13,034 nucleotides of DNA from a virus (taxonomy: Duplodnaviria; Heunggongvirae; Uroviricota; Caudoviricetes), in the IMG/VR virus record IMGVR_UViG_2654587571_000008, positions 1 through 13,034 of that record. The stretch is one strand, 5' to 3'. The notes below the pieces were generated by a model. It ran no database searches, was not told the origin of the DNA, and saw only the letters and a list, made by a program, of their open reading frames with translations. Within the stretch, counting starts at the first letter, position 1. Each line of letters starts with the position of its first letter. A program made the translations under genes and the position numbers. Shown here piece by piece: positions 1 through 13,034 of this stretch.

Positions 1-68
1 GGTGGCGGCGGCACAGTTGGTGTGGCGGCCTCAGTCCGGAACAATTTGAAAACCAGAACCTCGCTTAG
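1..68 (+). CDS. IS3-family transposase (OrfB) C-terminal fragment; 5' end outside window
   Basis: Codons 3..65 translate to WRRHSWCGGLSPEQFENQNLA followed by TAG at 66..68. From memory this matches the conserved C-terminus of IS3-type OrfB transposases. Confidence 0.7.
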   Translation, partial: WRRHSWCGGLSPEQFENQNLA

Positions 69-98
69 GCCTGTGTCCATATTACGTGGGTAGGATCA
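1..98 (+). mobile_element. Terminal ~98 bp of an IS3-family insertion sequence (right end, including transposase 3' end); body lies outside the window to the left
   Basis: Positions 4..98 are the exact reverse complement of 12940..13034. The element ends ...GGATCA at 98, matching the TGA...TCA termini typical of IS3-family elements (recalled). The transposase reading frame ends inside it. Confidence 0.75.
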
Positions 99-557
99 GA
101 GTTAGTTGTTATACTCAATCAAATCAGCACACTAACTGCTTTAAGTGAGCATCCAAAACTCGGTATCGGCGCTGTTGACATATCACTTTATAACCAGTCG
201 ATATTAACGTCTGAACATAATGGCAATGTTGCAACCATCGAGATAAAACACCATTATCCAAAGGATTTACTTTATCGGCAAGTTCAAGAAGACATCATTT
301 CCGATATTTCAAGAGTAATAGTTTCACCAACTACACACTTTATCCATATAATCCAGCAAAGAACCAAGATTAAAACTCCTTCTTTTGGTCAAGTGAAATT
401 CCTTGAACGTGATGCAAGTGATATCAGCACTTATGTGCAATGTCTTGAGGAGCTAAGTTCATTTCCCAGTAATTTTCATAAAAAAAGTGTATGTATTGAG
501 GTACTTGGTGAAATTATGTCGACATATACCTTTAACGTATATTCATTTGACAACTGA
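99..557 (+). pseudogene. 5'-truncated ORF of unknown function, cut by the IS end; AT-rich, in the bor-like position convergent with Rz1
   Basis: One frame is open from 69 to the TGA at 555..557 (162 codons) in very AT-rich DNA. The first in-frame ATG/GTG is at 393/516 with no Shine-Dalgarno, and the frame runs straight into the IS end at 98/99. Absent from the supplied ORF track because it has no start codon. Confidence 0.4.
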
Positions 558-578
558 TTAATTTGACAATTTTATTGC

Positions 579-836
579 TTAATGGTTAGTTCTCTCTGCA
601 TCTATTTTACGAATATCAGCTTTATCCCGATTGCAGTTAGCCAGCGCAGACAACAGACTCACATTCAGCTCCAGACTGGCACCATACGTCAGCGGATTAG
701 GTATAAACGGTACAGGAGTATCAGAAGTCAGGCTGGGTGGCAGTGGTGCCACCGGAACGCTCACGTAAACTGTCCGCGTACTTCCGCAACCGGTCAGCAG
801 CGGCAGCAGGCACAGCACGTGAAGCACAATCATCAT
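579..836 (-). CDS. Rz1: Rz1-like outer-membrane spanin lipoprotein (o-spanin), overlapping and extending beyond Rz
   Basis: Alternative frame inside the Rz gene. Begins MMIVLHVLCLLPLLTGC (signal peptide plus LLTGC lipobox) followed by a proline-rich region (VPVAPLPPSLTSDTPVPFIPNP). Confidence 0.55.
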   Translation of the reverse strand: MMIVLHVLCLLPLLTGCGSTRTVYVSVPVAPLPPSLTSDTPVPFIPNPLTYGASLELNVSLLSALANCNRDKADIRKIDAERTNH

Positions 837-1113
837 CCGCAACAGCCATTTTGATATCTTCCTGGGTTCTCTGTGACTCCAGTGCGATCTGCTGTTTTGC
901 ATGCTGGTTAGCCTCCAGTACTGTATTGACGATTTGCAGTGATTGCAGGACGTTATTGGTAATGGCAGTTGCCGATTTGGCATTTTGTACAGCCTCATCA
1001 GCACGTTTCTTTTCGTGCTGATATTTGCTGTAGTAGTGATTCGCTGACCAGATGAAAGAGCCAATAACAGTAAAGAAGAAAGCAGAGATAGTCAGCTTAT
1101 AACTCAACTTCAT
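721..1113 (-). CDS. Rz: Rz-like inner-membrane spanin (i-spanin)
   Basis: 130 aa with an N-terminal transmembrane anchor (LTISAFFFTVIGSFIW) and a charged, coiled-coil-like periplasmic domain. Lies immediately downstream of the endolysin and overlaps its 3' end. Confidence 0.7.
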   Translation of the reverse strand: MKLSYKLTISAFFFTVIGSFIWSANHYYSKYQHEKKRADEAVQNAKSATAITNNVLQSLQIVNTVLEANQHAKQQIALESQRTQEDIKMAVADDDCASRAVPAAAADRLRKYADSLRERSGGTTATQPDF

Positions 1114-1573
1114 TTACCACCCCACCAGCCTCTTTAAATCGGGCAATCAGGTCACCGATTTTATGTTCATACTGACCGTAACCTGCACCGGGTAATGAAG
1201 CCCATATATTGCTGCAACGGTCGATTGCCTGACGAATATCGCCGCTATCAATCATAGGTAAAGCGCCACGCTCTTTAATCTGCTGCAATGCCACTGCGTC
1301 CTGGCTTTTGGGGGAGAAGTCTTTCAAACCAAGCTGTTTACGGTAAGCATCCCACCAACGGGAAAGAAGCTGGTAACGTCCGGCGGCTGTTGATTTGAGT
1401 TTGGAGTTTAGCTTGACAAGTTTGCGAGGGTGATCGGAGTAATCAGTGAACAGTTCGCCACCAACAATAACATCATAACCGTGGTTACGTGTCGGTTGTC
1501 GCCCGTTATCCGTTCCTTCTGACCATGCCACCATATCAAGGAAAGCTTTACGCTGGGAATTTAGTACCTGCAT
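1097..1573 (-). CDS. Endolysin, lambda R-type (lytic transglycosylase, phage lysozyme family)
   Basis: 158 aa. N-terminus QRKAFLDMVAWSEGTDNGRQPTRNHGYDVIVGG and the rest match the recalled lambda R sequence almost residue for residue. Confidence 0.9.
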   Translation of the reverse strand: MQVLNSQRKAFLDMVAWSEGTDNGRQPTRNHGYDVIVGGELFTDYSDHPRKLVKLNSKLKSTAAGRYQLLSRWWDAYRKQLGLKDFSPKSQDAVALQQIKERGALPMIDSGDIRQAIDRCSNIWASLPGAGYGQYEHKIGDLIARFKEAGGVVNEVEL

Positions 1574-1576
1574 AAA

Positions 1577-1912
1577 TTACTCCTTAGAGCCACCAAACTT
1601 GTTACCGATTACTCGCATTGCAGCCCCACGAATAGCATCGACACCGATCAGCCCCACGCCACCACCAATGGCAACAGAAAGCGATTTAGGCCATCCGACA
1701 TACTCAAGAGCGGATGCAAAGGTCAGCGTCAGAGCGCCACAGAGCAAAATCTCGAGCGTTTTTCGCTTCCAGCCACCACCACCGCCAAAATAGGCGATGC
1801 GCAAACCAGCCATAACGATCGACATAATCACTGCACCCAGCGGTGTGTCTCCACGCCACCAGCTCTGAAACAACTCCAGCCAGTCCGGCCAGGTATTTGG
1901 GTTATGAGGCAT
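1577..1912 (-). CDS. Holin, lambda S-like (three predicted transmembrane segments)
   Basis: Start chosen at the internal ATG (1912..1910), preceded by GAGGTGAGAG. Three hydrophobic segments and a charged C-terminus, with AGLRIAYFGGGGG and LIGVDAIRGAAMRVI resembling lambda S. Stop is 3 nt before the endolysin start. Confidence 0.6.
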   Translation of the reverse strand: MPHNPNTWPDWLELFQSWWRGDTPLGAVIMSIVMAGLRIAYFGGGGGWKRKTLEILLCGALTLTFASALEYVGWPKSLSVAIGGGVGLIGVDAIRGAAMRVIGNKFGGSKE

Positions 1913-1955
1913 TTCGTCATCTCTCACCTCGCGATATTTGCGGGTGCTGTGTTGG

Positions 1956-1981
1956 AAATAAAAAGGCCACGCAACGTGGCC
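1956..1981 (-). terminator. Intrinsic terminator between the methyltransferase gene and the lysis cassette
   Basis: Perfect 7-bp GC-rich stem GGCCACG/CGTGGCC (1965..1971 and 1975..1981) with a 3-nt loop, followed on the minus-strand RNA by UUUUUAUUU. Confidence 0.6.
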
Positions 1982-1988
1982 ACCAGAA

Positions 1989-3044
1989 TTATTTCCCCAC
2001 CACCAGTTCACTTACCTCTTTCACCGTCTGATTAAACCGCTCTGTCTCAAGCTCAACACCTAACGCCCGACGCCCCAGCGCCATTGCTGCTTTTATTGTG
2101 GAACCGGATCCCATAAAGAAATCAGCAACCAGATCGCCGGGTCGACTACTGGCATTGATTATTTGCCTGAGCATATCCGCCGGTTTCTCACACGGATGTT
2201 TACCCGGGTAGAACTGAACGGGTTTATGCATCCAGACATCGGTATAAGGCACGGAGACTGATACGGAGAAATAGCGCCGGAGAGATTTAAACTCATCCAG
2301 CAATTCAGAATATTTGCGATTCAGTGAATCATAAGATGCCACCAACTGGTGGTGTGGTTGTTCCAGTTGTTGTTCCTGAAACTTCTCTGCCGCTATACGG
2401 GAAAACAGTGCCTGTAACTTCCGGTAGTCAGCCTCATTCGGCAACTGCCACTGACTGGCACCAAACCAGTGGGAAACCATATTTTTCTTACCTGTGGCTT
2501 CGGCAATTTGTTTTGCCGTTATACCCAGTTCGGCACGAGCATCCCTGAAATACGATATCAGCGGTGCCATTATGTGCTGTTTGAGTTCCCTTTCTTTTGC
2601 CGCATAGCCGTCACTTTTGCCGCGATATGGCCCCTGGTAATGTTCAGCAAACAGAACGCGCTCTGTGGCAGGAAAATATGCGCGCAGACTTTCTTTATTA
2701 CACCCATTCCAACGTCCGGACGGCTTCGCCCAGATGATATGGTTAAGCACGTTGAAACGTTCACGCATCATGATCTCAATATCAGATGCCAGGCGATGCC
2801 CACAGAACAGGTAAAGGCTTCCGGCAGGTTTCAACACCCGCCAGAACTGGGCCAGACAGTGGTCCAGCCACTTAAGGTAATCTTCGTCCCCTTTCCACTG
2901 ATTGTCCCAACCGTTGGGTTTCACCTTGAAGTACGGCGGATCGGTAACAATCAGGTCAATGGAATCATCAGGCAGGGACTGAATAAAATGCAGGCAATCA
3001 GCGTTGATTAAATCAACACTGTTTGTTTTTACAGTATTTTTCAT
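1989..3044 (-). CDS. DNA methyltransferase, N6/N4 family (beta-class, orphan)
   Basis: 351 aa with N-terminal motif IV (IVTDPPYF) and C-terminal motif I (DFFMGSGST). No adjacent restriction endonuclease. Confidence 0.85.
   Translation of the reverse strand: MKNTVKTNSVDLINADCLHFIQSLPDDSIDLIVTDPPYFKVKPNGWDNQWKGDEDYLKWLDHCLAQFWRVLKPAGSLYLFCGHRLASDIEIMMRERFNVLNHIIWAKPSGRWNGCNKESLRAYFPATERVLFAEHYQGPYRGKSDGYAAKERELKQHIMAPLISYFRDARAELGITAKQIAEATGKKNMVSHWFGASQWQLPNEADYRKLQALFSRIAAEKFQEQQLEQPHHQLVASYDSLNRKYSELLDEFKSLRRYFSVSVSVPYTDVWMHKPVQFYPGKHPCEKPADMLRQIINASSRPGDLVADFFMGSGSTIKAAMALGRRALGVELETERFNQTVKEVSELVVGK
3017..3036. promoter_or_regulatory. SOS-box-like palindrome (CTGT-N8-ACAG) overlapping codons 3-9 of the methyltransferase
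   Basis: cACTGTttgtttttACAGTA read directly; compare the recalled LexA consensus TACTGTATATATATACAGTA. It is the only CTGT-N8-ACAG site I found in the window. Confidence 0.3.
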
Positions 3045-3193
3045 GGATCAGTAAGCGTAACTCTGGTAGGCTCACTCTGCTTTTGCGCTAAAGCAGTGGG
3101 CCATGGTTCGCTTGTGACCAGTAAGCATGAGCGAATGGCTGGCAGGTGCTACCAACACCCACCAGCCGCCCATTTTCACAAATTAAAAGCCCT

Positions 3194-3388
3194 TCATTGC
3201 TGAAGGCGTCTGTAACAGCCGAACTGGTAATCTGCCAGCCCCGCCATAACCAGCTGGGTCAGTATTAACTGACAGCGTTCGCGTGAAAGGTATGTGTTTT
3301 GTGCAATCTCCCCGACTGTTGCCGGTTCGATGCTTAATTCATTAAAAACAACTTTCGCCGTTTCTGTCATATCTTGCTGTTTTAGCAT
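3194..3388 (-). CDS. Small (64 aa) putative winged-helix/HTH protein
   Basis: Start placed at the ATG at 3388 with AAGGGA about 8 nt upstream (the track ORF begins at 3412). ATVGEIAQNTYLSRERCQLILTQLVMAG looks like a helix-turn-helix. Confidence 0.4.
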   Translation of the reverse strand: MLKQQDMTETAKVVFNELSIEPATVGEIAQNTYLSRERCQLILTQLVMAGLADYQFGCYRRLQQ

Positions 3389-3509
3389 GTCTTTTTCCCT
3401 TCTGGTTAACATGACATACCAATAACTCTTGTCTAAAAAGCCAGCAAGATAAACAGTCAGTATTCACGACCACCAGCGTGTTTACCGTACTGCACCAATG
3501 TTTAATTTA

Positions 3510-3532
3510 TAAAAAAACCGCGAGAACGCGGT
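3510..3532 (-). terminator. Intrinsic terminator downstream of the 176-aa cargo gene
   Basis: 6-bp stem ACCGCG/CGCGGT (3517..3522 and 3527..3532) with a 4-nt loop. The plus-strand A7 run (3510..3516) gives a U7 tract after the hairpin on the minus-strand RNA. Confidence 0.6.
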
Positions 3533-3569
3533 AAGTATTGTTAAAAAACCAACAGTAATTTCACTCAAC

Positions 3570-4100
3570 TTATTTAATACATTCTTTTGCTTGCGCATAA
3601 TAAATTTTATGAGTATTAGCAAGCTTAACGAAGTTATACTTAACTGCCCCTAACAGGGTTCCAACTCTTGTATGCCCTTCCATTAAATGGAGCCCTGTTG
3701 TATTACTTTTCAGCAAAGCTCGATCTATAAAAAATGGTGGTTCGCACCATGTGCCAAAATTACACCAATGCGCTTTTATTTCATCATCCATAAATACATC
3801 ACCTTTACGGGTCATGTAATCTTCAACGACCTCATGCAAAAAATCAGGGCAAGTAGCATTATCCCCGATAGTTAAAAAGTTTTTAGTGGGAAGTTCAATC
3901 AATTTCCATTCAATTTGGTCAATATCAAGATCCCCATAAAGCTTCTGAAATCTGTCATCACCTACCAATCCATAATAAATCTCCTGAATTACAGGAGAGG
4001 GGGCAATGATAGAATATTGCTCACGAAGTATTCTTTCAGCCTCAGGAGCTTCAAATATGGTTCTTTCTGAGAAAATAGGCAGAAGATCTCGGTATAACAT
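3570..4100 (-). CDS. Hypothetical protein (176 aa), AT-rich cargo gene between Q and the lysis genes
   Basis: Long ORF in locally AT-rich DNA, with a GGGGAT Shine-Dalgarno upstream of the ATG and a strong terminator downstream. No family recognised. Confidence 0.5.
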   Translation of the reverse strand: MLYRDLLPIFSERTIFEAPEAERILREQYSIIAPSPVIQEIYYGLVGDDRFQKLYGDLDIDQIEWKLIELPTKNFLTIGDNATCPDFLHEVVEDYMTRKGDVFMDDEIKAHWCNFGTWCEPPFFIDRALLKSNTTGLHLMEGHTRVGTLLGAVKYNFVKLANTHKIYYAQAKECIK

Positions 4101-4132
4101 CCATATCCCCGTGTAAGAAAAAATAATTTAAC

Positions 4133-4152
4133 CCGCTCGGCTGCGGTTTTTT
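4133..4152. terminator. Short GC hairpin with flanking A and T tracts (candidate tR-prime, possibly bidirectional)
   Basis: CCGC tcggct GCGG followed by TTTTTT on the plus strand and preceded by an A-rich run. On the minus strand it sits about 40-55 nt downstream of the predicted late promoter. Confidence 0.35.
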
Positions 4153-4194
4153 GGACTTATCAACGGTAGACACACAAAGCCCATCGTTGAGAAA

Positions 4195-4223
4195 ATCTTA
4201 TCCATGTTTTTTGAAAAATGCAA
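4195..4223 (-). promoter_or_regulatory. Candidate late promoter (PR-prime-like) immediately downstream of the Q gene
   Basis: Minus strand reads TTGCAT, 17-nt spacer, TAAGAT (complement of 4218..4223 and 4195..4200), in the 154-bp gap between Q and the first late gene. Confidence 0.35.
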
Positions 4224-4254
4224 GCATCATGTCGCTATCTTTGTTGAAAATCAT

Positions 4255-5007
4255 TTATCTTGTCACTTTTCTCAATTGCGCTTCAGCATATGCTTCTTCC
4301 TGCCAGCACTTTGTAACCAGTTTATCAATGACGTCTGCATATCCTTTGTACCACTGATAATCCGTCAGGTCTGTTACCAGATTCTGGACATGACGTCGTG
4401 CCAGTGTGGTTGGTAAACGGCTAAATCGGTTTCCATTGCAACGCCCACAAATCTTATAAACAGGCGTGCCATGAAGCCGGGTTCTTTTTTCATCCAGGAC
4501 AATACCTTTACCCTTACATCCTCTGCACGCTGTGCTGACTTCTCCCTTACCATGACAATGCTGACATAGTTCCTTCACCCACTCTTCCTTGATAACAGAT
4601 TCCCCGTTTCTGGAGTGTTTCACCACTTCGCGCAATACATTATGAAATCCAGTACCAGCACAATGCTCACAGCGAGCCTTACTTGCCGCAGATCTGGAAT
4701 AATCAGCAAAGGCAAAATTCACAAGGTAAGGAATGATCTGTAGCCGGGTTTCTTCACTCAATTTGTTCAATGTCGGGTTATCCAGTGCCATCGCGTAATT
4801 GAGCAGACCTTCAATCGCAAACTGAGGATCCTGAACACCAACTTTTGCCAGGAATAAGGCAAAACCCAGTGGTGCTTTCGACTGCACCATCCCCTGCGCA
4901 GCCATCACATCTGTAATTGTTAAACCACCCGAGCCTGTCGCCGGTGCGTCATCACTCAATTTTGGAGATTTTGGGGAGTAATATTTTGGTAAGGCTTCAA
5001 GGTTCAT
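4255..5007 (-). CDS. Q-like late antiterminator with four CxxCxGxG zinc-finger motifs
   Basis: 250 aa with CEHCAGTG, CQHCHGKG, CRGCKGKG and CGRCNGNR. Sits directly upstream of the late promoter/terminator region. Good GGAGAA Shine-Dalgarno. Length agrees with the long Q-like proteins of E. coli prophages (recalled). Confidence 0.55.
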   Translation of the reverse strand: MNLEALPKYYSPKSPKLSDDAPATGSGGLTITDVMAAQGMVQSKAPLGFALFLAKVGVQDPQFAIEGLLNYAMALDNPTLNKLSEETRLQIIPYLVNFAFADYSRSAASKARCEHCAGTGFHNVLREVVKHSRNGESVIKEEWVKELCQHCHGKGEVSTACRGCKGKGIVLDEKRTRLHGTPVYKICGRCNGNRFSRLPTTLARRHVQNLVTDLTDYQWYKGYADVIDKLVTKCWQEEAYAEAQLRKVTR

Positions 5008-5020
5008 GCTCGTTCTCCAC

Positions 5021-6016
5021 TTACGCCAGTACGCCTATTGCCAGCGCACGATCGATAAAACGAAATATCAGCTCCAACTGGGAGCCATACATCTCTTCAA
5101 ATGCCACGGTATCCGCATGCAGCTCGTCGTGATGCTTTCTGCACAAAGGCAACACAAAGAGGTCATGCGCTTTTGTACCCATTCCCCCCTGACCGTGGCC
5201 TATCAGGTGGTGGGGATCATCAGCAAGCTTTCCACAACATGCACACGGCTGTGTCTTAACCCAGCGCGTGTACTTTTCATTAACCCAGCGGCGACGTTTT
5301 GGGCGTAACATAAAAGACTCCGGCGACTCCGGATCCACTTTCAGCGCCAGCACCTTTTTCGCTTTATCCTGGATAATGCTGGTGGCAGGAACCGAAGGCA
5401 CAAGGTCACTTTCCCGGGTGACAGACGGCACAACAGGCTTCGGTAATCTCAGTGCCTTACGGGCTGCACTTTCCGGTAAGGCATCCGCCAGGTCATTACG
5501 AATCAGCCACCAGCACAGTTCCGGCATTGTCACAACGTGACTGTCATCAAAACCGAGATCCCGACGCACAACAGACAACACCCAACGGGCACAGTTATCC
5601 GTTGCCATTGATTCCAGCCGTTCCGTGAACTGATCGCGCAGCTGGTTATCGCAGTGCCAGCAGAGACGGATTGCGCCCGGAGCGTGCCGCATTGTGGTCA
5701 TGTTCTCGCTGTGCCAGTCGGAATGAGGCCACTGGCAGCCTTTTTCACGAAGTAACCAGCTTTCAAGACATTCCACCCCACCAGCACGACGGATCACTGC
5801 CTCATTGCGGAACACGGCCCGAACGGCAGGATCATCCGCCAGCGGTTGTGATGCCGCGGGAACGGCACCACTGGCGAAAGATGAATAACGTTCCGGCTCA
5901 GGCTCCAGCAGGACACGCCCCTGCATAAACAGGGGCATCAGCTCTGAACCGGGCCTGAACAATACGATCCCCATACGCGGGGCAATTTCAGGGGTCAGTA
6001 GTGCTCTCACAGTCAC
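5021..6016 (-). CDS. DUF968-like prophage protein with a C-terminal Cys/His cluster (HNH-like)
   Basis: 331 aa. C-terminus PCACCGK...DPHH...GGMGTKAHDL...PLCRKHHDELH. Nin-region position between KilA-N and Q. Family assignment is from memory. Confidence 0.5.
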   Translation of the reverse strand: MTVRALLTPEIAPRMGIVLFRPGSELMPLFMQGRVLLEPEPERYSSFASGAVPAASQPLADDPAVRAVFRNEAVIRRAGGVECLESWLLREKGCQWPHSDWHSENMTTMRHAPGAIRLCWHCDNQLRDQFTERLESMATDNCARWVLSVVRRDLGFDDSHVVTMPELCWWLIRNDLADALPESAARKALRLPKPVVPSVTRESDLVPSVPATSIIQDKAKKVLALKVDPESPESFMLRPKRRRWVNEKYTRWVKTQPCACCGKLADDPHHLIGHGQGGMGTKAHDLFVLPLCRKHHDELHADTVAFEEMYGSQLELIFRFIDRALAIGVLA

Positions 6017-6017
6017 C

Positions 6018-6827
6018 TCAATGAACGGTATCGAGCAACTTTAACAGCTCGGGGAATCGGGATTCGAAGAAATGCGGCTGCGTCTCGCGCGGATTTGCGG
6101 GACTGGTGATGTTCTTGCCGAACATGCAGCCTTTCGCTGTCAGCGACCAGAATTTTTTGATGTTGTTAATCGCGGTACGGCTGTATCGTTCGCGCTGCTC
6201 GACGATCCCCAGCTTCACCATCTGGTGATATGCCTGATTAGCTGTCAGGCGGATACCATACTGCTTCAGCAGTGCACTCAGTGACAGCGTGGGGCGGCTT
6301 GAGCCATCAGGCGCGTCAGCAGGAGCATCAATGGCATAGCGCGGTGCCAGATTCGGTAAGCCAACAGCCTCCTGGAGTTTCTGACAGGCACCAAGCACTG
6401 AAGAGTTAGACAGGTTTAATTCCCGGCGCATAAAGTCCAGCAGAATCACACCAGCCTGCATCTTGTCAGCAGCCTGTCCGGATAATTTTTCCGGTGCGCT
6501 GGTTACCATATCGAAAGTACGGATCACCTTCAGATGGAATGACGGGCTGATCCACATTGCATAGGCATACACCAGTTCCTTGCAGACATACGTTCCCCGT
6601 TCATTTCCCCCATGAATCACACTCACCGGGTCAACACCCAAATTCTGAGTGTTGGTCAATTCATGAACAAGCTCAACAGTTTGTTGGCTGGAAAGAAACT
6701 TTCCTGGCTCCTTGGTTCTGGCATTTGCACCAGATGCTACTGCTGCGCGATGCAGATCGTTCAGACTGTAACGCCCATAAGCATCACGACGAACTTCAAT
6801 ACCATCAATGACCATCAGATTATTCAT
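6018..6827 (-). CDS. KilA-N domain protein (antirepressor-like)
   Basis: N-terminal ~100 aa (VIDGIEVRRDAYGRYSLNDLHRAA...GTYVCKELVYAYAMWISPSFHLKVIRTF) fits the KilA-N/APSES pattern. GAGGAG Shine-Dalgarno. Confidence 0.65.
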   Translation of the reverse strand: MNNLMVIDGIEVRRDAYGRYSLNDLHRAAVASGANARTKEPGKFLSSQQTVELVHELTNTQNLGVDPVSVIHGGNERGTYVCKELVYAYAMWISPSFHLKVIRTFDMVTSAPEKLSGQAADKMQAGVILLDFMRRELNLSNSSVLGACQKLQEAVGLPNLAPRYAIDAPADAPDGSSRPTLSLSALLKQYGIRLTANQAYHQMVKLGIVEQRERYSRTAINNIKKFWSLTAKGCMFGKNITSPANPRETQPHFFESRFPELLKLLDTVH

Positions 6828-6846
6828 ACTTCGTTTCTCCTCTTAA

Positions 6847-7236
6847 TCAGGCGGCTGCACCCGCCGTTTTCTCGTACTTACTTATAGTGATCTCGACCTT
6901 CCCTTCCGGGATAACCGGTCCCCACTCCACCAGCATTCTTTTCACCTGACTGTCGTCTTCCCACACACCCGCGTGGGTCAGGGCGTCAAACAGCGCCTTG
7001 TTATAGTTGTCCAGATCGCGGATCCGGTTATCCGGAGGAAACAACACGATCTCCACTGAAGCAGGTGCCGACGTTGGTTTTGGCAGACGACGTAACTGCT
7101 CAACTATTGCTGCACACGCCGCGCTCTGGAATTTGCGCCCCGCCGCGCTTATCAGGCTCTTACCTGCAAACGCCCCTTTGTTGGGGTGTCGCCAGTACGT
7201 GTTCACGCTGGGCGGAAAAGGCAGTATTAGCTTCAT
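6847..7236 (-). CDS. rusA: RusA Holliday-junction resolvase
   Basis: 129 aa. LPFPPSVNTYWRH and RDLDNYNKALFDALTHAGVWEDDSQV match the RusA signature, including the catalytic Asp cluster. Confidence 0.85.
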   Translation of the reverse strand: MKLILPFPPSVNTYWRHPNKGAFAGKSLISAAGRKFQSAACAAIVEQLRRLPKPTSAPASVEIVLFPPDNRIRDLDNYNKALFDALTHAGVWEDDSQVKRMLVEWGPVIPEGKVEITISKYEKTAGAAA

Positions 7237-7559
7237 ACTTTCAGGCCCCTCTCATGTAACCAGTGGGCTGCACGCAGCCTGGCGTTTGCCTCACCGGCAA
7301 GCAGTGCGCGGATAATCCCGACCGCCTCGCTGTCGTCGTCCTTCATCGCGGTATGAAGCGTTATCCCCCGGGCCACGCCACGCTTTATCGTGATGACGCC
7401 TTTTTTCTCCAGTGCTCGAAGATGCTCCACCGCTGCATTCACTGAACGGTATCCCAGCATGGTTGCCACCTCCTGATTGGTTGGCGGGAAGCCACGTTCT
7501 TTCTGGTAAGAAATCAGCATATCCAGCACCTGCTGCTGGCATTGAGTTAACGTCGTCAT
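7233..7559 (-). CDS. Standalone LexA N-terminal DNA-binding-domain homolog (no S24 peptidase domain)
   Basis: Residues 1-70 (LTQCQQQVLDMLISYQKERGFPPTNQEVATMLGYRSVNAAVEHLRALEKKGVITIKRGVARGITL) align with the recalled LexA N-terminus, followed by an unrelated 38-aa tail. ATGA overlaps with both neighbouring genes. Confidence 0.7.
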   Translation of the reverse strand: MTTLTQCQQQVLDMLISYQKERGFPPTNQEVATMLGYRSVNAAVEHLRALEKKGVITIKRGVARGITLHTAMKDDDSEAVGIIRALLAGEANARLRAAHWLHERGLKV

Positions 7560-8209
7560 GCAGCCATCTCCCTGACCAGTTTTTCCGCCTGCTGGCGAAC
7601 CTGCGCCAGAAAGGCCTCACCACATGCCTCAAGTTCATCGCGCCCGATGTAGCTGATTGCCGGTCCCTTCCAGGTCTTGTCGAAAACAGCAATAGCACCA
7701 GCGAAGAAAGCGCCTGTCGGCACCTGCTTCTCATCCTTCGGGATAAACCAGGCAGGCAGTTCAAAACCAATACGCCCGCGAATAAAAGCAATATGATCTG
7801 CATCTTCCGGCCACCACACTTCGCTGGTGGCAGCTTTGATCAGGAAAACATAGCGACCGCCTTTATCACGCATGGCACTGGCATGCTTCATGATGTAACG
7901 CATGCCGGTGATGTATTGCCCCTCATGCTGACTGGCGCGGCTGTATGGGGGATTACCAAAGGCAGCACCTTTAAGCTCCGCAAGACGTTCTGACCAGTCA
8001 TGTGCCAGCGCGTTGTCTTCCGCCGTGTAATACGCGGCACATTTGGCGTTATCACCGTCAGTGAACAGATCCAGAACAAACGGACCAAACAGGGTGTTAA
8101 TTCCCCAGAAAATGTTATCCGGCGTGCGCCACTGATCGCCCACTTCCTTCAGTTCATGGGCTGGTTTGTTCCGCAGCTCCACCAGCGCCCGGCAATATTT
8201 ATTACTCAT
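7556..8209 (-). CDS. Phage Dam-type N6-adenine DNA methyltransferase (orphan)
   Basis: FGNPPYS catalytic motif. Start placed at the ATG at 8209, which overlaps the upstream stop as TAATG (the track ORF extends to 8242). Confidence 0.75.
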   Translation of the reverse strand: MSNKYCRALVELRNKPAHELKEVGDQWRTPDNIFWGINTLFGPFVLDLFTDGDNAKCAAYYTAEDNALAHDWSERLAELKGAAFGNPPYSRASQHEGQYITGMRYIMKHASAMRDKGGRYVFLIKAATSEVWWPEDADHIAFIRGRIGFELPAWFIPKDEKQVPTGAFFAGAIAVFDKTWKGPAISYIGRDELEACGEAFLAQVRQQAEKLVREMAA

Positions 8210-8697
8210 TAAGCCCCCACGTAATTCCCTGACAGATACCACTCTTCACCTGATGCAGCCCGCTTGTTGCTTTTCCGTAAACACCGTTCACGACGCGCCA
8301 GAAAATTATTTCGTTCTGGCTGGGAGTGGCTTTCACGGAATGCCGCCATCCACACCGTTGCAGCACGACGGTATAAGCCCCTGGACTCCAGTTCTTCAGC
8401 CTGGCGGGTCAGGCACAAAATCACCCGGGGGTCGTTAGTGCCGACATAGAAATTGCGCACAGGTCTGGTTTCACGAACTGGTTGTGGTTCCGGCTCCTGC
8501 GCTCTCTCAGTCAGGCGCGGGAAATGTCTGCGTGTATCCCCTTCACAACGGTGAGCCACACGCCCACTCTGACGTAACTTGCTTGCTGACTGCAGAACGC
8601 GCTGCCGTGAGTAACCAGCAAAAGCATCTGCAATGTCTCCGGAAGTACACCCCGGATGAGCTTCAATGAATTTCTGAACGTCATTTAACAGACTCAT
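8209..8697 (-). CDS. Putative PerC/ANR-family-like transcriptional regulator with an N-terminal winged-helix-like region
   Basis: C-terminal ESRGLYRRAATVWMAAFRE...RRERCLRK resembles the GLWRRAA..W motif of PerC-type regulators (from memory). Start could be ATG 8697 or GTG 8703. Confidence 0.4.
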   Translation of the reverse strand: MSLLNDVQKFIEAHPGCTSGDIADAFAGYSRQRVLQSASKLRQSGRVAHRCEGDTRRHFPRLTERAQEPEPQPVRETRPVRNFYVGTNDPRVILCLTRQAEELESRGLYRRAATVWMAAFRESHSQPERNNFLARRERCLRKSNKRAASGEEWYLSGNYVGA

Positions 8698-8699
8698 GA

Positions 8700-9641
8700 T
8701 CACCCCCTGAATCCTGCCGGGATCTGGCTGTAGTCCACGTTGTCGTAACTGGATTTGAAGTACGGGTCTTCGCGTTTTTCGGTGTACGTGCTGACGGACG
8801 GCGATAAGCGCAGGGAAAGCTCATCCCATTTTTCCCGCAGCTTCGACGGGCTGAGCACGTTACGGCACCAGAACGGATCGCGGCTGACGCGGCTGTACAT
8901 CTCGCAGATTTGTTTGTGAGTACGACTATCCTGCACACACATCAGGCGAATTTCGTTTGCCCAGGCTGTCCAGTTCGGTTCTTTGGGACGAACCACCTCG
9001 CCGTCACATTCGGCGGCCTGCTCGTACAGGGCGATGATTTTTTTCCAGAGCCACTGTGCACAGGTCAAATCATCCTGCGTTCCCCACTGGCGCTTTTTAG
9101 GGCTGAATACAACCGCATCAGGATGGCGAGTTAAAAACTCCTGTTCAGCCGTCTGCGTGTCCGGTTGCGAAGCGTCCGGACGAGAAGTTTTTTTATCTGA
9201 CGGATCATGTTTTGATTTTACTGACGGATCCCCGCCAGATTCTGACGGGTGAAAACCCGCTTTTTTGCCAGATTTCGACGCATCAAATTTTGACGGGTCA
9301 GATTTTGATGCGTCAGATTTTGACGGGTCAGAATCTGACAGTTGAGAAAATGCCGCTGCCTGAAGCTTCGCAACGTTAAGCTGATAAACATTCGACGCAT
9401 TGCGGTTACCCTGGCGACGCGCCTTACGCGTTAACCAGCCTTCTGCTTCCAGCCGTGCGATAGCCGTTCTGACGGTACTCATCCCCGCGCCAATCTGACG
9501 GGCAATGGTTTCAATTGATGGCCAGCACACACCTTCGTCATTACTGAAATCAGCCAGGCGGGCCATAATTGCCACACTGGATAACTTCATGCCTGATGCA
9601 GCGCAACCATCCCATACATAGCCGGTTAATTTAGTGCTCAT
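8700..9641 (-). CDS. Replication initiator, lambda O-like organisation (N-terminal wHTH, origin iterons inside the gene)
   Basis: 313 aa. N-terminal HTH-like region (WPSIETIARQIGAGMSTVRTAIARLEAEGW). The central low-complexity DPSKSDASKSDPSKFDASKS is encoded by tandem DNA repeats. Confidence 0.65.
   Translation of the reverse strand: MSTKLTGYVWDGCAASGMKLSSVAIMARLADFSNDEGVCWPSIETIARQIGAGMSTVRTAIARLEAEGWLTRKARRQGNRNASNVYQLNVAKLQAAAFSQLSDSDPSKSDASKSDPSKFDASKSGKKAGFHPSESGGDPSVKSKHDPSDKKTSRPDASQPDTQTAEQEFLTRHPDAVVFSPKKRQWGTQDDLTCAQWLWKKIIALYEQAAECDGEVVRPKEPNWTAWANEIRLMCVQDSRTHKQICEMYSRVSRDPFWCRNVLSPSKLREKWDELSLRLSPSVSTYTEKREDPYFKSSYDNVDYSQIPAGFRG
9195..9345. repeat. Iteron array (candidate replication origin) within the initiator gene
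   Basis: Eight or more copies of a TYTGACGG-type unit, including near-perfect 15-bp tandem repeats (gattttgacgggtca / gattttgatgcgtca / gattttgacgggtca at 9301..9345), plus a nearby A/T-rich stretch. Confidence 0.55.
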
Positions 9642-9650
9642 GACCGACCT

Positions 9651-9989
9651 CTATTTCCCTGAATTTACGACGAAACTGTTCGAGCGGACTGAAGCATTCA
9701 TGCTCATAACCTTCGCGGAGGTAGATAACCCGTTGTGTTTCCGGCTCCCAACGAATGACTCTGACGGGCACTCCGTAGTGATCTTTGAACCAGCGGTTAA
9801 CTTGTCGCAAAGGACTGTCTCCTTCTGCCGGTTGAAATCACCCACAGCCCACTCTGCAAAGCTGTGGGTTACAATTTCCCTGTCACCTGGTACATTCACT
9901 GCATAGCAATATTCCACCTTCGCTTTTCCACCCGGTACAGGAAGCGCAATCAGTTGCGAGCGACGGTAGTGTGTTGTTAAACTGTTCAT
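9651..9989 (-). CDS. Hypothetical protein (112 aa) between the CII-like and initiator genes
   Basis: ATGA overlap with the upstream CII-like gene and AGAGG upstream of the following gene. No family recognised. An overlapping plus-strand ORF (9634..9906) makes the strand assignment uncertain. Confidence 0.35.
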
Positions 9990-10543
9990 GCGTTAGTTTC
10001 TCCACAACCAGAAGCAATCGACGCCACGACGCCCGGAGCTGCACACTCGCGGGCGTCATTACTTTCTGAAATGCAAAAGATTTTGTAGACCAGTGCTGCA
10101 TGCTCCTGCAGCTTCGAAATTGAGAGATACAGCTCGTCGTTAATTGCTGTCTTCTCATGCGGTTCCACTACACCGTCTTCGATTGCTGAACGAATCTGTT
10201 TTGAATAACTGCCGATCTGTTCAATGACTTCCAGCAGACGCTGGTTAATATCGGCGTTGTCCACATCCTCGACGTCAGGAAGAGACACAAATACGCCATT
10301 TGCAGACTGCGCCACAGCATCAGCAATGAAGTGAGTGCCACCAGCACGCTGTAAAACCATTGCCCATCCCAGCGGAAAAATCTGATCGCCATCTGCACGA
10401 AGGCGGTTGAATAAAGCGTTCTCTGTTACATCCAGCCAGTCAGCGGCTTCAGCGTAACCACCCGGCAACGCCGCGATAGTTTTTCTGACAGCTTTCACGT
10501 ACCACTCAGGCTGTTTTTCTATTTTCCAGTGATGCTTACCCAC
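9986..10543 (-). CDS. CII-like phage regulatory protein (185 aa)
   Basis: Start placed at GTG 10543, with AAGGAG 6 nt upstream (the track ORF begins at 10648 and would overlap cro). [16 protein letters not shown] resembles CII-type regulators (from memory). Confidence 0.45.
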
Positions 10544-10565
10544 GGCTATCTCCTTAAAACTGTGG

Positions 10566-10814
10566 TTACTTTTCATCTGATGAATCTTTAATCTTTTGAA
10601 AAATATCTGGACGTAATTTTTCTTTTGATATGCCAGTGGTCTTTTCAATGAATATCGAGAGCTTTGCAGGGGGACGCTTTTCTCTGTTCAACCAGTTCCA
10701 GACATGTTGTTGCTTTACTAAATGACCGCTGCTGGCTGTGAGCTTCCGAGCCAATTCTGATTGACCACCAGCCAGAGCGATTGCCTCCGATAAGGCTAAT
10801 TGCTCAGGTGTCAT
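10566..10814 (-). CDS. Cro-like HTH repressor
   Basis: 82 aa with an HTH (QSELARKLTASSGHL). Divergent from the cI-like gene across an operator-rich intergenic region. GGAG Shine-Dalgarno. Confidence 0.7.
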   Translation of the reverse strand: MTPEQLALSEAIALAGGQSELARKLTASSGHLVKQQHVWNWLNREKRPPAKLSIFIEKTTGISKEKLRPDIFQKIKDSSDEK

Positions 10815-10949
10815 AGCTTTCTCCTTTTTTGGTAGTTAAGTTGTTACGAGTTGCAAGAATACAACATTAACAACTTTTATCACAACTTTTAGGTGTTGGA
10901 AAGCTAAAACATAAAGTTGTAACCTCATCAAAAAAGAGAGGGATATGTT
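10815..10949. promoter_or_regulatory. Right operator/promoter region between cro-like and cI-like genes
   Basis: Contains five copies of AAGTTGT/ACAACTT (at about 10838, 10861, 10870, 10882 and 10914) and AGGTGTT. The same sequence blocks recur at 12560..12620. Confidence 0.5.
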
Positions 10950-11636
10950 GTGAAAACACTGGCAGAACGATTAAAGATAGGTAGAGAGAAAGCTGGCATG
11001 AGCCAAGCTCAACTAGCTGAAAAAATTGGACTTTCACAACAATCTGTAGCCAAAATAGAGAATGGCGAAACTCTACAACCGCGCAAAATTAAAGAAATTG
11101 CAAAAGTTTTAGGTGTATCACAAAAGTGGTTACAACTTGGTATTGAAGATAACGCATCCATACCTGATCTTGTTGTAAAAGAAGCAGAAAGCACCGCATT
11201 AGACCCCGATATTTTCGTAAACATTCCTGTTTTAGATGTCGAGTTATCGGCAGGTAACGGATGTCTGGCTGAAATAGTTGAATCAGCTATTGACTGGTTT
11301 CCGTTAAGAAGAGCAGATTTGAGAAAATCTGGCGTATGTGCATCTAATGCCAAGATCGTAAAAATATGGGGGAACAGTTTATTACCGGTTCTCAATAATG
11401 GAGATCTTGTTGCCGTTGATATTTCTCAAACCGTTCCTATTCGTGATGGCGATCTTTATGCCGTACGAGATGGTGTATTGCTAAGGGTTAAAATACTTAT
11501 CAACTTACCTGACGGTGGCTTGATTCTTAGAAGCTTCAACAAAGATGAGTACCCAGATGAAATACTCACCTTTGAAGATAGACGAGCCAGAATTCATGTT
11601 ATAGGTAGGGTATTCTGGTCATCGCGAACTTGGTAA
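10950..11636 (+). CDS. CI/LexA-type prophage repressor (HTH plus S24 peptidase, autocleavable)
   Basis: GTG start with AGAGAGGGA upstream. N-terminal HTH (MSQAQLAEKIGLSQQSVAKIENGE), an Ala-Gly cleavage site (LSAGNG), catalytic Ser (WGNSLLP) and Lys (LLRVKIL). Confidence 0.85.
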   Translation: MKTLAERLKIGREKAGMSQAQLAEKIGLSQQSVAKIENGETLQPRKIKEIAKVLGVSQKWLQLGIEDNASIPDLVVKEAESTALDPDIFVNIPVLDVELSAGNGCLAEIVESAIDWFPLRRADLRKSGVCASNAKIVKIWGNSLLPVLNNGDLVAVDISQTVPIRDGDLYAVRDGVLLRVKILINLPDGGLILRSFNKDEYPDEILTFEDRRARIHVIGRVFWSSRTW

Positions 11637-12509
11637 TGCATCGAAAAGCATTTCTTCAGAAATAATTTTAAGTTTTGCACCATTATCATCCCTATAAGAT
11701 ATAGCTTTTTCGATCTTCCTTCCGTGACTTGAGAATTTCCAATCACGGGAGGAAAGCGTCCCAATTACTAAAAAATCCAACTTTTGAGTAATTCCACTAC
11801 TGATGTTCCCACCAGCATTTTTAATCAAATTTTCAACTACGGCTCTCTTTCCTGCAACAAAAGTGCCTGTAAGACAATAGGTTTTACCCTCTAACTCTAT
11901 CGAAGCCCCTACATCAATAGGCAGCCTGGTCGCCAAACCATCCACCACCCCACTTTCCAAGTCACATCCTGTGAAGTCTACTAATGCCTTATGTAGAGTT
12001 AAACTCTCATCTTCAGTAATAACCCCATCTTTAAGAATTTCCTTTACAAGTGCATAAAGTTTTTTTCCTGGGTAGTTGTTCTTCAAAGCTCCATTTTGCT
12101 CAAGCCACCAATTAAGATATCTTATTTCTTCTTGAGTTAAGTTCCGATCAGCAATTAATCCTTTACATAGTCCATTAAGTAAATGGACATCTACATCCTT
12201 GGAGTAAAAATCAATTTCAGGGATATCAAGAATTTCCCTCTGTATTTGGAGAAGGCTATTTTTAAGGTCATCACGTTCTTCTGATGTGATTATTCCATCC
12301 GCAAGAATATCCGACACCCGTGCTGATAGACTTTTTATAACTCCATTATTGATAATCTGCTTTGCTTCAAGTAACCATGTATCTAAGTAAAGAACCTCCT
12401 CTTCACGGACAACTCCATCTGCAATGATTCCATCAATGATGCTAATCAAGTTAGCAAATAACTTGTCCCGGTTCTGTGTGTAATTAAAAGCGTAAAGCGC
12501 GTCTTCCAT
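11619..12509 (-). CDS. Uncharacterised protein with four N-terminal DG-x-I-T-x-EE repeats (TerB-like?) and a C-terminal BRCT-like domain; candidate superinfection-exclusion/defence gene
   Basis: Start placed at ATG 12509, with AGGAGG 5 nt upstream. C-terminus GKTYCLTGTFVAGKRAVVENLIKNAGGNISSGITQKLDFLVIGTL...AKLKIISEEMLFDAL follows the BRCT pattern of NAD-ligase C-termini. The 3' end overlaps the cI-like gene by 18 bp. Confidence 0.6.
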   Translation of the reverse strand: MEDALYAFNYTQNRDKLFANLISIIDGIIADGVVREEEVLYLDTWLLEAKQIINNGVIKSLSARVSDILADGIITSEERDDLKNSLLQIQREILDIPEIDFYSKDVDVHLLNGLCKGLIADRNLTQEEIRYLNWWLEQNGALKNNYPGKKLYALVKEILKDGVITEDESLTLHKALVDFTGCDLESGVVDGLATRLPIDVGASIELEGKTYCLTGTFVAGKRAVVENLIKNAGGNISSGITQKLDFLVIGTLSSRDWKFSSHGRKIEKAISYRDDNGAKLKIISEEMLFDALPSSR

Positions 12510-12559
12510 ACAACCTCCTTTTTTTGATAATCCTTGCACTCCTTGGCTACTCGTTCAAA

Positions 12560-12625
12560 CCACATAAAGTTGTTGACAACATTCAAAACCACAACTAAAT
12601 TACAACTTAAAGGTGTTAAAACAAC
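12560..12625 (+). promoter_or_regulatory. Left operator/promoter region with a PL-like rightward promoter
   Basis: Consensus -35 TTGACA (12573..12578), 17-nt spacer, -10 TAAATT (12596..12601). An imperfect dyad AAGTTGT-TG-ACAACAT (12567..12582) overlaps the -35. Operator motifs are shared with the right operator region. Confidence 0.5.
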
Positions 12626-12697
12626 GAACAGGCAGGACGCCCACGAAGTAGCCGCCTGGGGCATATGAAGTCCAGGATGATTCGTTAGCAACAAAAA

Positions 12698-12729
12698 AGC
12701 GCCCTACAGGACGCTTAGCTCTTTAACAA
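12698..12729 (+). promoter_or_regulatory. Candidate antitermination (nut-like) site: boxB-like hairpin followed by an rrn-type BoxA
   Basis: Hairpin AGCGCCC-uaca-GGACGCU (12698..12715, one mismatch), then GCTCTTTAACAA (12718..12729), identical to the recalled core of the E. coli rrn BoxA. It lies in the leader between the promoter and the first gene. Confidence 0.45.
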
Positions 12730-12774
12730 TCTGGTCCCCATCAACAAGTAACTGATAACTTGAGGAGGTGTGAA

Positions 12775-12942
12775 ATGCACAAAACAGAACCAAAAATCGT
12801 CGCACCCGGATACACAAATGAGGAAATTTACGAGTGGATGGCAAAGAAGCTGGCAGCTATAAACCAGCTTCGTGAAGTGCTGTCTTATCGACAGGAAACA
12901 ATAGACTCCTTAAAAAAACTGGATCAGGAAATCACGGTTTGA
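12775..12942 (+). CDS. Small ORF (55 codons) of unknown function, probably 3'-truncated by the IS; stop codon supplied by the IS terminus
   Basis: Strong AGGAGG Shine-Dalgarno 6 nt upstream of the ATG. The TGA at 12940..12942 is the first three bases of the IS end. Confidence 0.45.
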   Translation: MHKTEPKIVAPGYTNEEIYEWMAKKLAAINQLREVLSYRQETIDSLKKLDQEITV

Positions 12943-13034
12943 TCCTACCCACGTAATATGGACACAGGCCTAAGCGAGGTTCTGGTTTTCAAATTGTTCC
13001 GGACTGAGGCCGCCACACCAACTGTGCCGCCGCC
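12940..13034 (-). mobile_element. Terminal 95 bp of a second, inverted IS3-family copy; body lies outside the window to the right
   Basis: Exact reverse complement of 4..98. The window ends inside the element. Confidence 0.75.
12970..13034 (-). CDS. IS3-family transposase (OrfB) C-terminal fragment; 5' end outside window
   Basis: Mirror image of 1..68, with the stop codon TAG at 12972..12970 on the minus strand. Confidence 0.7.
   Translation of the reverse strand, partial: RRHSWCGGLSPEQFENQNLA

Follow-up and report, generated by a model that had tools for sequence, protein, structure and literature searches.

Two inverted IS3 copies around the immunity, replication and lysis genes of an SfV/e14-like Escherichia coli prophage most probably inserted separately

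The 13,034-nt stretch of DNA analysed here (hereafter, the window) had been described from its sequence as a prophage regulatory and lysis module, a description with which RefSeq annotation and Pfam agreed: cI-like, cro-like, and O-like genes, RusA, a Q-type antiterminator, holin, endolysin, Rz, and Rz1 are all present, and two methyltransferases also lie within the window (Table 1). The succession of cI/cro, O-like gene with iterons, nin-like region, Q, holin, endolysin, and Rz/Rz1 is that of a lambdoid or SfV/e14 early and lysis region. Inside the O-like gene, an iteron-like array of four units with a 15-bp period (positions 9269–9343) is presumed to be the origin of replication. The BRCT-domain protein was alone among the scanned genes in matching a PADLOC model, with a weak hit to PDC-S48 (E = 2.4e-7). 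In icd-integrated NC-SV/e14-type prophages, a small RNA (svsR/co293) is reported to be encoded at the 3′ end of cI (PMC12803456). An Rfam scan of the window at the gathering threshold found no RNA family.

Table 1 Features of the window. Positions are those of the window except where L001 is given.
Feature	Position	Strand	Details
Left IS3, last 98 nt	1–98	+	Full copy L001 16841–18098; TAG 66–68; IRR ending ...GGATCA at 98
Left IS3 duplication GAG, inner copy	99–101		Outer copy L001 16838–16840, beyond the window
C-terminal remnant of a 189-aa phage gene (PHROG 12494)	99–557	+	Codons 39–189; cut after codon 38
Lysis cassette	579–1912	-	Rz1/LysC 579–836; Rz-like DUF2570 721–1113; endolysin 1097–1573; lambda-family holin 1577–1912 (RefSeq, Pfam)
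DNA methyltransferase (N6_N4_Mtase)	1989–3044	-	Annotation, Pfam
Q-type late antiterminator	4255–5007	-	Pfam Antiterm
Nin-like region	5021–8703	-	DUF968 5021–6010; KilA-N 6018–6827; RusA 6847–7236; LexA-type DNA-binding 7233–7559; Dam-type methyltransferase 7556–8209; PerC-family 8209–8703
O-like replication initiator	8700–9641	-	HTH_36; homologue annotated "DNA replication protein O"
Immunity switch	10566–11636	divergent	cro-like 10566–10814 (-); cI-like 10950–11636 (+), HTH_3 and Peptidase_S24
BRCT-domain accessory protein (PHROG 3989)	11619–12509	-	PHROG of unknown function; opposed to early-left genes
Truncated small gene (PHROG 1744)	12775–12942	+	Intact form 68 aa; cut after codon 55, stop directly inside the IS
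Right IS3 duplication GTT, inner copy	12937–12939		Outer copy L001 32198–32200, beyond the window
Right IS3, last 95 nt	12940–13034	-	Full copy L001 30940–32197; IRR starts TGATCC at 12940; minus-strand TAG 12970–12972

The window matches positions 879931–892964 of the complete chromosome of E. coli PS1Thumoskin9 (NZ_CP180607.1) over its full length with two substitutions. There, the surrounding prophage is bounded by the duplicated 3′ end of icd and carries intE, xisE, ymfL, ymfR, pinE, and mcrA, as does the e14 prophage, which likewise sits at icd. Phages vB_EcoM-720R4, vB_EcoM-689R6, SfV, SfII, and mEp460 share 95–97% identity with 52–67% of the window, although its content is mosaic compared with SfV/SfII/mEp460-type phages, with every deposited phage falling short of 80% coverage. 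Like SfV-type phages, relatives of the present prophage possess a contractile-tail module; the prophage itself differs from the SfV/e14 family in having three IS insertions and in having lost its tail module. This loss, an IS-associated deletion of ~11 kb of tail genes, lies ~9.6 kb outside the window at the third IS.

At either end, the window runs into the tip of one of two identical, canonical E. coli IS3 copies. The initial description of the window ends as perfect reverse complements was borne out by direct reading and by a computed inverted repeat, with positions 4–98 and 12940–13034 complementary over 95 nt at 100% and the arms separated by 12,841 nt; a perfect inverted repeat of this length in 13 kb rules out a chance origin. 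The transposase frame of IS3 type proposed to read inward to a TAG stop is likewise present in the left arm and mirrored in the right one (Table 1), and the RefSeq coding sequence of the left transposase ends at L001 18068. The repeat was also expected to continue outward, and in the complete chromosome the identity is sustained over exactly 1258 bp, beyond which it is lost. Two 1258-bp IS copies were obtained by this extension, both complete in NZ_CP180607.1 and, as had been anticipated, placed in inverted orientation around the 12.8-kb segment; their IRRs point inward. At 100% identity, they form the sole long inverted repeat within the prophage.

IS3 group elements measure about 1.2–1.5 kb, and IS3 itself is 1258 bp long. 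IS3 is the type element of its family, compared here through its K-12 copy IS3A (NC_000913.3 315229–316483), and the copies described here share with IS3 this length, TGATC...GATCA ends, imperfect inverted repeats of ~39 bp, overlapping OrfA and OrfB, and a 3-bp target duplication. Their ends, TGATCTTACCCA... and, reverse complemented, TGATCCTACCCA..., agree, in a by-eye count, at 28 of their outermost 39 positions, giving imperfect terminal inverted repeats of the form 5′-TG...CA-3′. Pfam identified HTH_Tnp_1 in OrfA, and HTH_21, rve, and rve_2 in OrfB, and RefSeq annotates the transposase as a joined coding sequence labelled "programmed frameshift", in keeping with IS3 elements, whose OrfA (HTH) and OrfB (DDE/rve catalytic domain) are linked by a programmed -1 frameshift. 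Both copies differ from K-12 IS3A by two substitutions within the stretch common to all three, and K-12 IS3A departs at its extreme left tip, which reads ...TGCC as opposed to TGAT in the present copies. Length, near-identity, termini, OrfA/OrfB, and target duplication all place these copies in IS3, from which we found no difference of substance.

Each copy is framed by a 3-bp duplication of its own, as predicted for IS3-type elements, with GAG-IS-GAG on the left and GTT-IS-GTT on the right. On the left, the outer flank ends in ...ACGTGATGAG and the inner flank reads GAGTTAGTTG. Empty sites of 600 nt were rebuilt by taking out the IS and one copy of the duplication; the left site then found a single uninterrupted match in 77 other complete E. 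coli genomes and the right site in 407, at 99.7–100% identity (the range for both sites), with only one copy of the triplet present at either site in these genomes. Gene order and strands across both IS3 copies also agree with those of an IS-free relative, NZ_CP078137.1, in which capsid, portal, terminase, HNH, two small plus-strand genes, lysis, Q, replication, cro/cI, a small gene, an ECs1072 gene, and int follow one another. In NZ_CP180607.1, the HNH, terminase, portal, and capsid genes lie just past the left IS3 and xis/int ~1 kb past the right IS3, all on the expected strands, and Q and the lysis genes within the window share one strand and a canonical order with the late genes beyond it (HNH, terminase, portal, and capsid). 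Since each IS has its own 3-bp duplication, empty sites exist elsewhere, and gene order is collinear, these features indicate two independent simple insertions of IS3 into a normally ordered SfV/e14-like prophage at icd. We hold this explanation with high confidence, and no evidence contradicting two separate insertions was found. The orientation of the segment is based on one complete, long-range-resolved genome and on the agreeing target duplications.

These observations also bear on the earlier proposal that an IS event explained the absence of integrase, terminase, and structural genes, either because the segment was inverted by recombination between the IS3 copies or because an adjacent deletion removed these genes. 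Identical inverted 1258-bp repeats are generally good substrates for homologous recombination, the window itself is devoid of int, terminase, and structural genes, and the prophage did lose its tail genes at an IS. However, an inversion would swap the duplications and yield mismatched flanks, whereas both copies are matched and the late genes keep a single strand and canonical order on either side of the left IS3; neither the exchanged duplications nor the reversed gene order of an IS-mediated inversion was seen. A deletion is contradicted by the int/xis, packaging, and head genes present just beyond the window and by the comparison with the empty sites, which revealed zero bases missing at either insertion site, and the tail loss is tied to a different IS without sequence similarity to IS3. 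Inversion or adjacent deletion is thereby refuted for the assembled genome, and we consider it very unlikely; minority inversion isomers in a culture would be invisible in such a consensus sequence.

A composite transposon was the other origin suggested for the segment, with IS3, 12.8 kb, and IS3 having moved in as one piece or being mobile as a unit. Two identical, intact, inverted IS copies do bracket a DNA segment here, just as identical IS copies bracket unrelated DNA in Tn10, Tn5, and an IS2-like 210-kb element of Burkholderia thailandensis, which illustrates the capacity of IS3-family elements to move large segments that they flank (PMC6350997). Unlike in these elements, the outer triplets of the present pair disagree, with GAG at the left end and GTT at the right, and each IS has a matched pair of triplets in place of a shared outer duplication. 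The interior also runs on into the flanking DNA, with which it makes up one collinear prophage, ordered as in IS-free relatives, and is not a foreign passenger. Each insertion site is found empty by itself in other genomes, and the complete unit occurs in 1 of 5,426 complete E. coli genomes, in this context only, so that a second location is lacking. From the known mechanism, both outer ends would moreover be IRLs, and not the natural IRL/IRR pair for circle formation. The IS3 pair thus resembles a composite transposon and bears no sign of ever having moved as one. Past movement as a composite is refuted by the target duplications and empty sites; these, together with synteny with NZ_CP078137.1, leave both this proposal and that of IS-mediated inversion or deletion without standing, and a composite origin or unit mobility appears extremely improbable.

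The positions at which the window ends could in principle point to an assembly artefact as the source of its terminal inverted repeat, with no real pair of flanking IS. These ends lie 98 and 95 nt inside a multi-copy repeat, in the manner of short-read contigs bounded by repeats, and sister contigs include exactly 127 nt of IS3 at each end. Yet two separate IS3 copies are resolved at full length in the complete chromosome, each with its own outer flank and a coherent duplication, and both inner junctions are seen again in three or more other independent assemblies or samples. An exact pattern search of draft assemblies located both junction 27-mers in three further independent assemblies, on contigs of 13,094, 13,066, and 12,897 bp, and the assemblies with both junctions include GCA_040271735, GCA_026801855, GCA_017119525, and SRR19671049. 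The wider context, beyond the reach of these draft contigs, is resolved in one complete genome. The left junction was not found by exact search of a one-genome-per-species collection, which is uninformative for a strain-level event. An artefact accounts for where the window ends, but not for the existence of the IS copies, and as an explanation of the flanking pair it is scarcely credible. The 127 nt of IS3 at either end of the 13,094-bp contig fit an assembler k-mer overlap, and the end positions and sister contigs together suggest that the window is most likely a short-read contig broken inside the collapsed multi-copy IS3 repeat.

Two separate insertions of this kind are ordinary events, already known and understood. 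IS3 transposes by a copy-out-paste-in route through a circular intermediate and generates a 3-bp target duplication, and each copy here would have arrived by such ordinary transposition. One IS3 entered the 189-aa accessory gene, which has the lysis cassette on one side and the HNH/terminase genes on the other; the second entered the 68-aa gene, located where the immunity region gives way to the xis/int module. No rearrangement took place between or beside them. Their chance opposite orientation, with right ends inward, explains why the edges of the window form an inverted repeat. In the remnant of the 189-aa gene, the first in-frame start codon left is a GTG at 393. Searches of both disrupted genes against Pfam, PHROGs, and PADLOC returned matches limited to PHROG families of unknown function, and the same was true of a neighbouring 111-aa gene and of a 176-aa low-GC gene; these matches point to no functional consequence of the insertions. 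The effects may be confined to two lost accessory genes, to polarity that might affect late transcription, and to 1.26 kb of inverted homology available to later recombination.

Such homology could favour a future inversion. The two identical inverted IS3 copies might also turn the 12.8-kb block of immunity, replication, and lysis genes into a working invertible or transposable cassette. If so, RecA-mediated flipping would uncouple Q and lysis from the packaging genes, or the block would be able to transpose as an IS3 composite carrying a phage immunity module. We regard such a cassette as highly doubtful, and the consensus sequences provided no support for minority isomers or rare mobilisation.

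Beyond correct annotation, the paired insertions are of little importance. For annotation, a perfect inverted repeat at both ends of a contig usually reflects a short-read assembler stopping inside a multi-copy IS, and genes "missing" from a repeat-bounded contig may sit just past the repeat, as the integrase, terminase, and structural genes do here. The two IS3 copies also provide a handy clonal marker of this lineage, and they mark further decay of a prophage that was tail-less already. Decaying ("grounded") prophages eroded by IS insertion and deletion have been reviewed (PMC6379469); with IS in accessory genes and an IS-associated loss of the tail module, the present prophage shows no difference from them and is a typical example.

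Megablast of the window against 5,426 complete E. coli genomes returned one full-length match, on the reverse strand of NZ_CP180607.1 (879931-892964; strain PS1Thumoskin9, human, Guangzhou). The two sequences differ only at window positions 9754 and 9915 (A and C in the window, T and T in the chromosome); the source of the window is therefore either a sister isolate or a different version of the assembly, within the same lineage. Read directly, the window edges form an inverted repeat with 95-nt arms, 100% complementarity and 12,841 nt between them, which cannot be due to chance; the left arm terminates in ...GGGTAGGATCA and the right arm opens with TGATCCTACCC... As the original prediction had proposed from these perfect ends, each arm holds a transposase frame running inward to a TAG stop, and the repeat continues past the window edge: in L001, the chromosomal match with 18-kb flanks, inverted identity stays at 100% for exactly 1258 bp and extends no further. 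Extending both sides thus recovered two full IS3 copies in inverted orientation around the segment, and no other long inverted repeat occurs anywhere in the prophage. Both copies carry the RefSeq label [quoted passage not shown], with protein WP_085947598.1 common to both, and Pfam domains HTH_Tnp_1 in OrfA and HTH_21, rve and rve_2 in OrfB. Alignment to K-12 IS3A gave 2 differing positions per copy across the shared stretch. The ends read TGATC...GATCA with imperfect inverted repeats of ~39 bp, and the right end (IRR) of each copy points into the window interior. All testable defining features of IS3 were found, and both copies are canonical IS3.

Coordinates of features in the window, in L001 (window position = L001 position minus 18000) and in L005 (tail-gene region of NZ_CP078137.1)
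Feature	Sequence	Coordinates	Strand
Inverted repeat, left arm	Window	4-98	
Inverted repeat, right arm	Window	12940-13034	
Transposase stop TAG, left	Window	66-68	
Transposase stop TAG, right (mirror)	Window	12970-12972	
Left IS3 copy	L001	16841-18098	plus
Right IS3 copy	L001	30940-32197	minus
Remnant of 189-aa gene	Window	99-557	
Annotated 55-aa ORF	Window	12775-12942	
Duplicated icd 3' end	L001	4338-4553 and 37913-38128	
Three cargo genes between intE and icd copy	L001	34709-37564	
Third IS3-family element	L001	7141-8398	
Contractile-tail genes	L005	8061-19045	
Lowest G+C stretch	Window	3500-4000	
176-aa gene	Window	3570-4100	minus
O-like replication gene	Window	8700-9641	minus
Four overlapping repeat copies	Window	9269-9343	
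Related repeat copies	Window	9195-9218 and 9493-9516	
cI-like repressor gene	Window	10950-11636	
BRCT-domain protein gene	Window	11619-12509	minus

A search for target-site duplications, suggested with the original prediction, revealed that the copies are flanked by separate direct duplications of 3 bp each, as expected of IS3: GAG on the left (...ACGTGATGAG / IS3 / GAGTTAGTTG...) and GTT on the right (...AATCACGGTT / IS3 / GTTTTATCAC...). Empty sites, rebuilt without the IS and its second duplication copy but with 300 nt retained per side, were queried against complete E. coli genomes; 77 genomes have the left site in one unbroken stretch (identity up to 99.8%), and 407 have the right site, many at 100%. 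Gene order and strands also agree throughout with the IS-free relative in NZ_CP078137.1 (L002), which runs from capsid, protease, portal, terminase, HNH, two small plus-strand genes, Rz1/Rz, endolysin, holin and methyltransferase to Q, DUF968, KilA-N and RusA, on through the O-like gene, cro and cI, to a small gene, the ECs1072 gene and int. Taken together, these own duplications, empty sites and shared order indicate that the two IS3 copies are separate, independent simple insertions.

The suggestion that the segment is a composite-transposon-like unit, or the product of IS-mediated inversion or deletion, does not survive this evidence. Flanking by two copies is the one feature shared with a composite transposon: movement as a unit predicts one duplication common to the outer ends and a foreign interior, neither of which was seen, and the remaining defining features tested were likewise not found. 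Recombination between the inverted copies predicts exchanged duplications and a reversed interior, again neither seen, and the defining features of IS-mediated inversion were not recovered; adjacent deletion predicts bases lost relative to the empty sites, and none is missing. For simple insertion, each copy would have entered by copy-out-paste-in via a circular intermediate, as established for the family (summarised in PMC6350997). Occasional flipping or mobilisation of the immunity and lysis block through the 1.26 kb of inverted homology is highly improbable, and no observation supports it. Prophages in decay commonly carry IS insertions.

The inverted repeat is real biology, while the edges of the window were most likely set by the assembly. 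By exact-sequence look-up, the truncated 55-aa ORF, which occurs only with the right insertion present, lies on 20 contigs, and a lineage-specific methyltransferase lies on 18. These include draft contigs of 13,094 bp (GCA_026801855.1), 13,066 bp (GCA_017119525.1) and 12,897 bp (SRR19671049), each with both exact junction 27-mers; the double insertion is therefore common to a lineage. This recurrence, and the two full copies in a complete genome, argue against the repeat being an assembly artefact, the outcome named as fatal to the original prediction. The 13,094-bp contig has a 31-residue rve_2 fragment and exactly 127 nt of IS3 at both ends, the latter being typical of an assembler's k-mer overlap reaching into a collapsed repeat; the window, 13,034 bp long and ending in 98 and 95 nt of IS3, fits this pattern. 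Since interior orientation is not visible from short-read contigs, it is based on the complete genome and the agreeing target duplications.

Both insertions interrupt genes from families without assigned function, the left one a 189-aa gene (PHROG 12494) after codon 38, whose remnant has its first in-frame start codon, GTG, at 393, and the right one a 68-aa gene (PHROG 1744) after codon 55, so that only the annotated 55-aa ORF remains. Pfam and PADLOC scans of both disrupted genes gave no match. With the lysis cassette on one side and the packaging genes on the other, the left IS3 may be polar on late transcription.

Integrase, terminase and structural genes, which had been considered absent, are present just outside the window in L001. 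Outward from the left IS3 are a small gene, an HNH endonuclease, small and large terminase, ymfR and portal, then prohead protease, major capsid, and head-tail connector and closure genes, all oriented as an unbroken late operon would require. Beyond the right IS3 follow an ECs1072-family gene, xisE, intE, three cargo genes and icd. The prophage boundaries are marked by a duplicated 216-nt stretch from the 3' end of icd (82% identity), with pinE and mcrA at the far end, as in e14. Phages vB_EcoM-720R4, vB_EcoM-689R6, SfV, SfII and mEp460 share 95-97% identity with the window interior across 52-67% of its length. The cargo genes, outside the window between intE and the attachment-site copy of icd, include a 445-aa HEPN/Toprim-associated-domain protein and a 309-aa hypothetical protein, and have the appearance of a small defence-type island within the prophage. 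In NZ_CP078137.1 (L002, 3133151-3134359), the closest IS-free relative, the early, lysis, head and tail modules are almost the same, but the integrase differs and the prophage sits beside a tRNA-Thr gene near proA rather than at icd, which shows that the integration module is exchanged within this phage group.

A third, unrelated IS3-family element (1258 bp) lies ~9.6 kb past the left window edge. Its ends (TGTAGTGGCACAC... and TGTAGTGGTCAAG...) are presumably IS911-like, and blastn found no similarity between this element and IS3. It stands in place of ~11 kb of contractile-tail genes found in NZ_CP078137.1 (tail fibre, baseplate, tape measure, tube, sheath and part of the tail terminator) and is flanked by GCG and AGG, without target duplication. 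An IS-associated deletion appears to have left the prophage tail-less here.

Within the window, the O-like replication gene contains four overlapping 30-nt copies of CAGATTTTGACGGGT-type units at 15-bp spacing, the usual layout of lambdoid origin iterons, and related copies lie nearby. A 296-aa BRCT-domain protein (PHROG 3989, without assigned function) is encoded convergently with the cI-like repressor gene, overlapping its 3' end by 18 nt; it has a weak PADLOC match to candidate defence family PDC-S48 (E=2.4e-7) and may be an accessory or defence gene beside the immunity region. In icd-integrated NC-SV/e14-type prophages, the sRNA svsR/co293 at the cI 3' end reportedly represses lamB and limits phage infection (2026; PMC12803456). 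Given the same general type and integration at icd, a homologue may by analogy lie where the cI-like gene ends; an Rfam scan of the window gave no match. Finally, the lowest G+C in the window (0.356 vs ~0.50-0.57 in neighbouring genes) coincides with a 176-aa gene (PHROG 8867, without assigned function) between the Q antiterminator and the methyltransferase, a position typical for an added accessory gene.
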